From Vulcanimicrobiota bacterium (GTDB lineage: Bacteria > Vulcanimicrobiota > Vulcanimicrobiia > Vulcanimicrobiales > Vulcanimicrobiaceae): a stretch of 64,000 nt of DNA. The notes beneath the pieces are model-generated. The model had not been told where the DNA came from. It did not search any database and saw nothing but the letters and a program-made list of their open reading frames with translations. The position numbers and the translations under genes were made by a program. Shown piece by piece: positions 21,611-22,193 of this stretch (positions are counted from its first letter, which is position 1; each line of letters opens with the position of its first letter). The stretch lies in contig OY968762.1 of assembly GCA_963695225.1 (NCBI GenBank), positions 2,560,001-2,624,000 of the forward strand, written 5' to 3'.

Positions 21611-21874
21611 ATGCAGATTAAGACGGCGATCTCGCGTGGTCTCAGTGCGCTGGGGGCAGCAATTTTCGGGTTGTTCGCGTTCCTCCAGGTGCACGGCTAC
21701 GCGCTTGCGACTGAGCTCGATGGTAATAAAGAGACCATCGGCAAGCCCTACTATTACGGTGGATATCCTGGCCCGCCGACGTGGTTCTGGATCCTCGCGT
21801 TCAGCTCCATCCTGGCCGCTTTCGTGGTTTTCGCGGCCGACGCCAGCGTTCGCAACGCCGGCAAGAACCGTTAG
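21611..21874 (+). CDS. Small signal-peptide + TM protein, PYYYGGYPGPP family member 1 (copy A)
   Basis: GAAAGG RBS; ALA cleavage-like site; conserved paralogue at 46284. Confidence 0.85.
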   Translation: MQIKTAISRGLSALGAAIFGLFAFLQVHGYALATELDGNKETIGKPYYYGGYPGPPTWFWILAFSSILAAFVVFAADASVRNAGKNR

Positions 21875-21914
21875 TTTGTCCCCGTCGATCGCCTGAGTAG
21901 GAGGGTTGCGAAGA

Positions 21915-22193
21915 ATGAGTTCTTTCTCCAAGCGTACGAAGGCGGTCTCGCGTGGCCTCGGTTTGGCGGGGCTCGTCCCCGCGCTGGTCGTGGCCATCCA
22001 ACAGGTGGCGCTGGCGGCGGGTGATACCTCCGTACCGAATCCCTACTACTACGGGGGATATCCTGGGCCGCCGGCATGGTTTTGGATCCTAGTCTTCCCC
22101 GGCTTCCTTGCGGCGCTCGTGTTCCCAATGGCCAGTGGCTGGCTGAGCAAAGCCTACAAGGAAGCAAACGCCAACCTGCGCAACAGGGGCTGA
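21915..22193 (+). CDS. Small signal-peptide + TM protein, PYYYGGYPGPP family member 2 (copy A)
   Basis: AGGAGG RBS; VALA cleavage-like site; conserved paralogue at 46581. Confidence 0.85.
   Translation: MSSFSKRTKAVSRGLGLAGLVPALVVAIQQVALAAGDTSVPNPYYYGGYPGPPAWFWILVFPGFLAALVFPMASGWLSKAYKEANANLRNRG

Follow-up and report, generated by a model that had tools for sequence, protein, structure and literature searches.

A puf-linked family of paired small membrane proteins, candidate accessory subunits of an H-less reaction centre complex in Eremiobacterota

What role do two pairs of small membrane-protein genes play beside the photosynthetic reaction centre (RC) genes of a bacterium in whose genome no RC H subunit was found? 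We examined this question in a stretch of 64,000 nucleotides (nt), referred to here as the window (contig OY968762.1, positions 2,560,001 to 2,624,000, of GenBank assembly GCA_963695225.1, a Vulcanimicrobiota bacterium). The window is a photosynthesis gene cluster with a crtI-like gene, bchD, bchI, two bchF, crtB, bchC, bchX, two Crp/Fnr-type regulators and two pufBALMC operons, and it holds two tandem pairs of genes for what we call the type-1 (T1) and type-2 (T2) proteins. The reading that we favour, tentatively, is that T1 and T2 are signal-peptide-processed, N-out, stoichiometric accessory subunits of an H-less complex of RC and light-harvesting complex 1 (RC-LH1), analogous, and not homologous, to the X/Y/Z proteins of Roseiflexus. 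We arrived at it because the family was confined to one long-branch H-less RC lineage, held a fixed place by puf, was kept with each puf duplicate and shared a promoter box with pufB.

The four genes are as follows.

21611-21874, forward strand: T1a, type-1 gene, 87 amino acids (aa); signal-like residues 1-33 ending in ALA, putative mature part of 54 aa.
21915-22193, forward strand: T2a, type-2 gene, 92 aa; signal-like residues 1-34 ending in ALA, putative mature part of 58 aa.
46284-46538, forward strand: T1b, second copy of the type-1 gene, 84 aa; over 228 nt, 89% identical to T1a in nucleotides.
46581-46862, forward strand: T2b, second copy of the type-2 gene, 93 aa; over 258 nt, 92% identical to T2a in nucleotides.

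A preliminary description, made from the letters of this DNA, had reported two tandem genes with a downstream repeat, and when the entire genome, a single contig of 2.98 Mb, was searched with T1a, exactly these four copies were returned. T1 and T2 are paralogous (about 50% protein identity), and each of the four proteins has the parts listed in that description, in the order: basic N-region, hydrophobic stretch of 15-17 residues, Ala-Leu-Ala (described there as an AxA site), short polar segment, the motif PYYYGGYPGPP[T/A]WFWIL, second hydrophobic stretch of about 21 residues taken as a transmembrane (TM) helix, and basic tail. Putative mature T1a begins with TELDGNKETIGK, followed by PYYYGGYPGPPTWFWIL, the TM helix and the tail SVRNAGKNR; that of T2a has PYYYGGYPGPPAWFWIL, the TM helix and then a longer tail, SGWLSKAYKEANANLRNRG, reaching 20 residues past the helix. 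Start codons were fixed by an initiation region common to T1 and T2, GGTTGCG(C/A)AGAATG. The alignment of 19 family members (A1) had 17 invariant columns, which included nearly the whole motif, extending across the family the invariance first noted within the window, and the Ala at -1 of the ALA site (19 of 19 members); A-L-A was kept in both the T1 (A2) and the T2 (A3) alignments. Hydropathy and charge profiles gave small residues at -3 and -1 and the tripartite layout of a signal peptide, judged by sequence heuristics alone, and the putative signal peptide is probably cleaved. The putative mature parts of T1a, T2a, T1b and T2b contain no His, as had been stated; the sole His, in T1, lies within the signal-like region.

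T1 and T2 are real genes under purifying selection, stronger on the putative mature part. GC content was 0.70-0.75 at third codon positions vs 0.47-0.54 at second positions (0.74 vs 0.50 in T1a). The ratio of nonsynonymous to synonymous substitution rates (dN/dS, Nei-Gojobori) was 0.07-0.53 for T1 among orthologues and copies; for T2, comparisons between genomes gave 0.21-0.42, and near-identical copies, with a dS of only 0.015-0.06, reached up to 0.69. Taken over every informative comparison, the ratio was 0.06-0.5, with its lowest values in the mature part. Within the window, T1b differed from T1a with a dS of 0.54 and a dN/dS of 0.20, and T2b from T2a with a dS of 0.06. When these copies were divided at the ALA site, dN/dS was 0.06 for the mature part vs 0.36 for the signal part in T1, and 0.15 vs 1.44 in T2, bearing out the earlier remark that mature regions are the more conserved; constraint concentrated in this way would be the pattern expected for a cleaved signal peptide. 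The nucleotides under the motif differed at synonymous sites between T1 and T2, so that its invariance reflects selection on the protein and not recent gene conversion.

We then asked if the family had been recognised elsewhere. No Pfam or NCBIfam family matched the four proteins, in line with their having been called novel, and the antenna alpha/beta family PF00556 gave no match at E<=1, a family to which the window's true pufA was itself weakly matched (E 0.19). The A1 profile, run against 177,635 distinct PDB sequences (a set without chains of <20 residues), had its best match at E 0.18, to K2P potassium channels, and the protein atlas held no T1/T2 match at 0.9 or above and no family. A word-based search of 5.8 billion proteins returned 9 clusters. 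A full hidden Markov model (HMM) search of 1.84 billion representative proteins returned 7 matches, 5 of them real and 2 repeat-protein artefacts; the latter (P0010, 960 aa, and P0015, 2712 aa) were rejected on reading their sequences, in which weak matches to internal repeats had been summed. The motif was also scanned for in one genome per species for 185,579 species, giving 5 true loci in 3 records of metagenome-assembled genomes (MAGs), which may overlap the genomes of the phylum sample below and were not counted separately, and one chance match of 19 residues (L021, Rhodococcus). Among metagenome contigs there were 4 true loci and one match rejected as chance (L058, RYPGPPTWF inside an unrelated frame). 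No description of the motif or the family was found in the literature on Eremiobacterota photosynthesis, in a search of listings and of passages retrieved by term; supplementary maps of the photosynthesis gene cluster could show these open reading frames (ORFs) as 'hypothetical'. Relatives termed type-3 (P0012, P0007, P0008, P0013 and L023) carried the motif, TM helix and tail at the C-terminus of longer proteins; P0012 had a signal peptide and a Cu_amine_oxidN1 domain (E 2.9e-19), and P0007 part of such a domain. The type-3 protein of genome G001 (100 aa; L023, about 8720-8932, G001:C1) is encoded far from puf, between an oligopeptidase gene and two ORFs read as feoA/feoB; it may have a lipobox (FLAAC).

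The distribution of the family was assessed in an even set of 401 Eremiobacterota genomes, with pufLM scored by PF00124. T1/T2 occurred in 5 genomes (G000, G001, G014, G030 and G167) from 4 genera, and pufLM in 29. The preliminary description had proposed motif and HMM searches for co-occurrence with pufLM, and had held that homologues common in non-phototrophs would speak against its interpretation; all 5 carriers were among the 29 pufLM genomes, and the family was found in 0 of the 372 pufLM-negative ones. Among 61 relatives, T1/T2 was present in 4 and pufLM in 6; these counts, and the transporter comparison given below, include the unpublished genomes G008, G019, G021, G028, G029, G048 and G059, as negatives only. 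The closest relatives with named records are Eremiobacterota MAGs; those carriers that have named records are all MAGs, none of them known from culture. PufL was 89-99% identical to that of the window in the 4 other carriers; for the 24 phototrophs that lack the family the identity was 55-62%. The carriers formed a single branch, here clade A, in a maximum-likelihood tree of PufL (28 rows, without the non-carriers G186, G191 and G295, whose PufL was missed by the ORF filter); the branch was supported at 100/100, and its stem measured 0.85 substitutions per site. Genome G237, placed in the same genus as the carrier G030, had the other PufL type and no T1/T2; since the two differ in both respects, the family tracks the puf type and not the host. 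Compared by eye with the PufL of G024 (L022, 9602-10426), clade-A PufL (window 23150-24025) was extended at its N-terminus and had about 9 residues (HGSGDFRSWQSG) inserted past the first TM helix, a difference on the periplasmic side that could be connected with the extra subunits.

The puf operons, and a pair of ABC (ATP-binding cassette) exporter genes that bears on the placement of T1-T2, are these.

22550-26245, forward strand: pufBALMC copy 1; LH1 beta and alpha, RC L and M, tetrahaem cytochrome.
51089-54784, forward strand: pufBALMC copy 2; 100% identical to copy 1 in the stretches compared.
47234-49006, forward strand: ABC1, half of an ABC exporter pair of heterodimer type that separates T2b from pufB copy 2.
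48934-50802, forward strand: ABC2, the other half of the pair.

T1-T2 had been placed upstream of each puf operon. For copy 1 this held directly, T1a-T2a ending 357 base pairs (bp) before pufB; T1b-T2b lies 4.2 kb upstream of pufB copy 2 with ABC1 and ABC2 between, which had been overlooked. Every T1-T2 locus with enough flank (both in the window, L016-L020 and, by coordinates, G001) had the pair on the same strand as pufBALMC and upstream of it, directly or across ABC1-ABC2; the four metagenome contigs (L054-L057), which stop inside the ABC genes, shortly past them or earlier, cover the upstream side only. The recurrent layout was bchD-bchI-bchF, a 39-aa ORF (s39, see below) and Bmp on the minus strand, then T1, T2, ABC1, ABC2, pufB-A-L-M-C and a 41-aa ORF (s41). 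The order T1-T2-ABC1-ABC2 was seen in window copy 2, L016, L017, L019, L020, L054, L055 and L057. A long layout, with ABC1-ABC2 between T1-T2 and puf, was present once in G014 and twice in G167, and G000, G001 and G030 each had one long form and one short form with T1-T2 directly before pufB. From these paired forms it follows that a duplicated puf unit kept T1-T2 under purifying selection and lost the exporter genes, and short copies that keep T1-T2 without the ABC genes would fit a dosage tie to puf.

The T1/T2 copies of the window were merely 89-92% identical in nucleotides, vs 100% for the compared stretches of the two puf operons. The wider puf regions (22548-27346 vs 51087-55983) were likewise 100% identical where compared, whereas the T1 and T2 copies had the unequal dS values given above, a pattern that points to mosaic gene conversion whose boundary falls between T1 and T2. 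Seen by eye, GC-rich direct repeats of roughly 70 nt (...gccaagcgcgcggggtcccccacgggtagagccgcggaccctgccgcgcagcggcgccggggaggatagg...) lie at about 45846-46100, between the Bmp gene and the T1b promoter. In G167, with an intact pufL at 538217-539089, two further pufL copies (G167:C1, 973652-974525 and 982566-983439) were split into parts matching residues 1-187 and 169-291 with a TGA between; one puf duplicate of this genome seems to be decaying, or this may represent an assembly frameshift.

We next consider whether T1-T2 is expressed with puf. The elements below (no strand is assigned to boxes and -10-like elements) were found around the two pairs and pufB.

21475-21488: perfect palindrome GTAGCACAGGCTAC, 136 nt before the ATG of T1a.
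21508-21516: extended -10-like element TGCTACCCT, 19 nt past the T1a palindrome.
46143-46156: perfect palindrome GTAGCGCAGGCTAC, 141 nt before the ATG of T1b.
46177-46185: element TGCTAATCT, 20 nt past the T1b palindrome.
22460-22473: variant box GTAACGCGCGCTAC, 90 nt before pufB copy 1.
22493-22501: element TGCTACACT, at the same distance from the pufB copy 1 variant box as at T1a.
50996-51009: twin variant box upstream of pufB copy 2.
22208-22237, forward strand: 13-bp perfect hairpin starting 15 nt past the T2a stop; z -5.43, 0 of 200 shuffles folding as well.
46869-46912, forward strand: 20-bp perfect hairpin after the T2b stop, followed by UUUUCC; z -5.18, 0 of 200 shuffles folding as well.

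The claim that T1-T2 shares a puf promoter motif was upheld: the box GTAGC-N4-GCTAC, at <=1 mismatch, had 10 matches in the window vs 1.29 expected (maximum 4 in 100 shuffles), with sites upstream of T1, pufB and s39. Exact copies numbered 4 in the 2.98-Mb genome, 3 of them in the window, upstream of T1a, T1b and s39 copy 2; the fourth, inside a sedolisin-like peptidase gene, was taken as chance. Across four genomes an exact box stood 136-141 nt before the ATG in 6 of 6 T1 loci, followed about 19 nt on by TGCTAnnCT in 5 of the 6. In 6 of 6 pufB loci the box, at -90 to -93, departed from this form by 1-2 mismatches (GTAAC-N4-GCTAC or another variant) and was spaced as at T1 from TGCTAnnCT (3 loci) or TGGTACGnT (3 loci). 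The s39 box was 10 nt nearer its -10-like element than at T1 or pufB, and no box was found upstream of ABC1 in the window. If transcription started about 7 nt past the -10-like hexamer, the box centre would fall at about -41.5, which is the activator position in class II CRP/FNR promoters; the 5-N4-5 box may thus be an FNR-type activator site of class II geometry. A sigma-70 consensus scan of 21200-22700 returned 0 promoter-like sites, and the promoter proposed for T1 and pufB is based upon the conserved box together with the TGnTAnnnT element. Two Crp/Fnr-family regulators of the photosynthesis cluster, at 35962-37272 on the reverse strand (436 aa, with a long N-terminal extension) and 59525-60205 on the forward strand, are candidate binders of the box. 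Perfect hairpins of 12-20 bp were present past the T2 stop in 5 of 6 loci (z -3.7 to -5.4; 0 of 200 shuffles as good), with none in L016. The T2a hairpin has no U-tract after it; it could be a terminator or an mRNA-stabilising element, and read-through past the T2 hairpin is probably attenuated. Because of the shared box and the hairpin past T2, we regard T1-T2 as a separate two-gene unit, probably strongly expressed from a pufB-like promoter, and the pair would be co-regulated with puf. A search for RNA sequencing runs over 21200-26500 listed none. The T1 leader of about 95 nt (window 21517-21610 and 46186-46283) was conserved in sequence across genera and shortened in the short copy of G001. 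A long-range stem in it (GGAGCTGTC ... GACGGCTCC) was discarded for want of covariation (1 of 12 pairs compensatory), and Rfam at the gathering threshold had 0 matches in the whole window, this leader included.

What, then, could such a pair contribute to the photocomplex? No PRCH (PF03967) match was obtained in the genome, which is a single contig and 97.8% complete, and the PDB sequences nearest to the window's PufL were the Chloroflexi entries 8iug and 5yq7, with no Eremiobacterota RC structure among the best 60 of 89 PDB matches to it. An earlier study agrees, in that no puhA was seen in Eremiobacterota and the RC resembles that of Roseiflexus (PMC6664022). According to the structural report on Roseiflexus, its RC-LH is completed by small, previously unannotated TM proteins X, Y and Z, and X (32 aa) is inserted opposite to LH alpha/beta with its C-terminus in the cytoplasm (PMC10516601). 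X/Y/Z of Roseiflexus castenholzii resemble T1/T2 in being small single-TM proteins in an RC-LH without H and with a membrane-anchored tetrahaem cytochrome, and X has the orientation that we infer for mature T1/T2. They differ in that X has 32 aa and no signal peptide reported there, vs precursors of 84-93 aa with a predicted signal peptide, and in that the X and Y genes lie away from puf, whereas those of T1/T2 are puf-linked, paralogous and in tandem. T1/T2 have no sequence similarity to X/Y/Z. The likeness to Roseiflexus drawn in the preliminary description is therefore apt as an analogy, given an H-less RC, a PufL nearest to Chloroflexi RCs in the PDB and the same inferred orientation of X, and does not extend to homology.

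In the reading that we favour, T1 and T2 would be made with a Sec-type signal peptide and cut after the conserved Ala-Leu-Ala. The mature proteins of 54-58 residues would then begin with a short periplasmic N-terminus and continue with an aromatic/proline collar at the periplasmic face of the membrane, a single TM helix and a basic tail in the cytoplasm, and so would sit N-out/C-in. LH1 bacteriochlorophylls lie at the periplasmic side in established RC-LH1 structures. T1/T2 may pack against LH1 or RC helices, oriented opposite to LH alpha/beta and with the collar at the level of these bacteriochlorophylls, and they may stabilise RC-LH1 or shape a quinone gate as X/Y/Z do in the H-less Roseiflexus complex.

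Extra polypeptides of this general kind are found in other lineages. LH1 gamma of Blastochloris viridis, PufX, protein-Y/Z and protein W are lineage-specific, mostly single-span RC-LH1 extras that stabilise the ring or shape the quinone path. RC-S and RC-U of Gemmatimonas are likewise lineage-specific extra RC-LH1 polypeptides (PMC12654162). None of these is homologous to T1/T2. To our knowledge, none has a cleavable Sec signal peptide or a Tyr/Pro/Gly/Trp collar of the T1/T2 kind. Lineage-specific small RC-LH subunits are thus already known; a signal-peptide-bearing, tandem-paralogous, puf-linked family with a collar motif would be new. The LH1/LH2 alpha/beta polypeptides (PF00556) also come as tandem paralogous small single-TM genes beside RC genes with a hairpin after the pair (in Rhodobacter, after pufA); T1/T2 are unlike them in having no PF00556 match, no His in the mature part, an opposite inferred orientation and a predicted signal peptide. 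In the M13 (inovirus) procoat, the precursor of the major coat protein, a cleavable signal peptide precedes about 50 mature residues, which form an acidic N-terminus in the periplasm, a single TM helix and, in the cytoplasm, a basic tail. This precursor is of the same build as T1/T2, an architectural analogy only, since no phage genes occur at the T1/T2 loci and the synteny with puf holds across genera.

Several findings weigh against T1/T2 as RC-LH1 subunits. The mature proteins lack a pigment-ligating His. The AlphaFold2 model of T2 (12-row alignment) has predicted helices at 20-36 and 54-91 and a mean pLDDT of 64.8; it is of low confidence, shows the motif region as coil with low pLDDT and so gives the motif no structure, and is informative on predicted topology only. 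A complex prediction for mature T1 with mature T2 (alignments A2 and A3) scored 0.03 vs a mark of 0.32, which speaks neither for nor against binding. T1/T2 was missing from 24 of the 29 phototrophs of the phylum sample, and neither the complete phototroph G024 nor G022 was matched by its profile, even with the threshold relaxed to E<=10; owing to that absence, the family is not needed for Eremiobacterota photosynthesis in general. The motif-plus-TM module also stands on unrelated longer proteins away from puf. Finally, among the 61 relatives the distribution of ABC1 was exactly that of T1/T2, and the pair was followed by ABC1-ABC2 and not by puf in the single-copy genome G014, in both G167 copies and in 3 of the 4 metagenome contigs (in the fourth, L056, the sequence stops past an ABC2-like match of 29 residues). 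The layout with the ABC pair between T1-T2 and puf looks like the older one. Because T1-T2 often precedes ABC1-ABC2 and ABC1 is co-distributed with it, the partner of T1/T2 could be the exporter.

These points bear upon the alternatives to different degrees. T1/T2 could be accessory subunits, adaptors or cargo of ABC1/ABC2, which would supply something to the clade-A photosystem, the link to puf being indirect. Such a role would account for the recurrent T1-T2-ABC1-ABC2 order (window copy 2 and seven other loci) and for ABC1 orthologues of 74-80% identity in T1/T2 carriers only (<=39% in all others of the 61 relatives); moreover, peptide-plus-exporter loci usually place small genes first, then a hairpin and then the transporter genes, a layout that T1-T2, hairpin and ABC genes match. 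Yet short copies without the ABC genes persist under purifying selection in three genomes, T1 shares its box with pufB and not with ABC1 in the window, and the hairpin separates T2 from ABC1. ABC1/ABC2 are generic MsbA-like half-transporters with solely ABC_membrane and ABC_tran domains, below every NCBIfam equivalog cut-off and without a peptidase domain, and the Sec-type signal peptides of T1/T2 should make an ABC exporter unnecessary; we regard this role as rather improbable. A bacteriocin-like reading, in which ABC1/ABC2 would help to export T1/T2 as a secreted two-peptide pair, would suit the same genes: both peptides are small, cationic and hydrophobic, have leaders and are encoded in tandem, and a hairpin and ABC transporter genes follow them; but the leaders are Sec-type and end in ALA, not GG, the transporters have no C39 peptidase domain, no immunity gene is evident, and the locus lies inside a photosynthesis cluster, shares the pufB box and keeps its synteny across four genera, which makes this idea extremely unlikely.

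Closer to the photocomplex itself, T1/T2 might be assembly, insertion or regulatory factors of its biogenesis (for example in a periplasmic hand-over of pigment or polypeptide) that are not part of finished RC-LH1. The phyletic, syntenic and promoter evidence is the same for such factors as for subunits, a separate transcription unit would permit regulation independent of puf, and proteins without a pigment ligand could serve in this way; retention of T1-T2 in both puf duplicates of G000, G001 and G030, where the ABC genes are kept once, suits a stoichiometric role over a catalytic one, however, and tiny two-paralogue proteins with an invariant surface collar would be more typical of structural subunits, so that we consider a biogenesis role unlikely. 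The motif, TM helix and basic tail might instead be a general membrane anchor or C-terminal sorting-type signal (of the PEP-CTERM or LPXTG kind), with the puf neighbourhood irrelevant to the photocomplex: T1 and the type-3 proteins all end in motif, TM helix and short basic cluster, fused in P0012 to Cu_amine_oxidN1 and in P0007 to part of one, and the type-3 gene of G001 is not near puf. Against a sorting signal, this genome encodes no more than four carriers, all tiny, whose 'cargo' amounts to 12-20 residues each, T2 has its 20-residue tail past the TM helix, and neither exosortase (PF09721) nor sortase (PF04203) gave a match at E<=0.01 in this genome (rhombosortase and archaeosortase were not separately searched). 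The restriction to one PufL clade, the fixed synteny and the shared promoter box would also go unexplained, and we judge an anchor module very unlikely. On the genetic side, then, the preliminary description was strongly supported: the family is new, confined to phototrophs, always linked to puf and shares the pufB box; presence in the RC-LH1 complex itself is a step beyond this, and one that the accessory-subunit reading takes as plausible.

Two further mini-proteins accompany clade-A puf.

21255-21374 and 44608-44727, reverse strand: s39, a 39-aa single-TM ORF (MEATFG...ALIPWPWIDPEDAL), divergent from T1; copies 78% identical in nucleotides.
26325-26450 and 54864-54989, forward strand: s41, a 41-aa TM ORF (MPRNQLYIYIAITIVAVILGLF...HGHGHF), 80 nt past pufC.

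With its palindromic box about 55-60 nt upstream, s39 was 70-100% identical in other clade-A genomes; it was found in 4 carriers, with a marginal match in G024. In that genome, which is without T1/T2, an ORF ending ...AVIPWPWTRGKSLKQ (L022, about 11061-11195, reverse strand) stands directly upstream of pufB on the same strand, and because of it s39 may be a more widespread puf-linked mini-protein. The place of s41, directly after pufC, is that of pufX in Rhodobacter. It was 47-53% identical in four other clade-A genomes and present in 4 of 28 phototrophs, all carriers; the window query did not find it in the 24 other phototrophs. A bolder proposal, which we put forward as possible but doubtful, is that T1 and T2 would be the first RC-LH1 subunits with cleavable signal peptides, N-out partners that originated along with a long-branch, H-less RC, and, together with s39 and s41, would replace the membrane anchoring and ring-gating done elsewhere by the H helix, PufX or X/Y/Z, with the collar placed at the periplasmic pigments or the cytochrome.

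The RC of Eremiobacterota is among the least known of type II reaction centres, and T1/T2, with s39, s41 and the ABC pair, mark one sharply divergent lineage of it. T1, T2, s39 and s41 are named candidates for the unassigned helices that are likely in such an RC complex, and GTAGC-N4-GCTAC is a candidate regulatory box for the photosynthesis genes of the phylum. For evolutionary biology, T1/T2 offer a set of genes that travel with the puf type instead of the host. If the proposal for T1/T2 with s39 and s41 is true, they would represent an independently evolved way to build a type II photocomplex.

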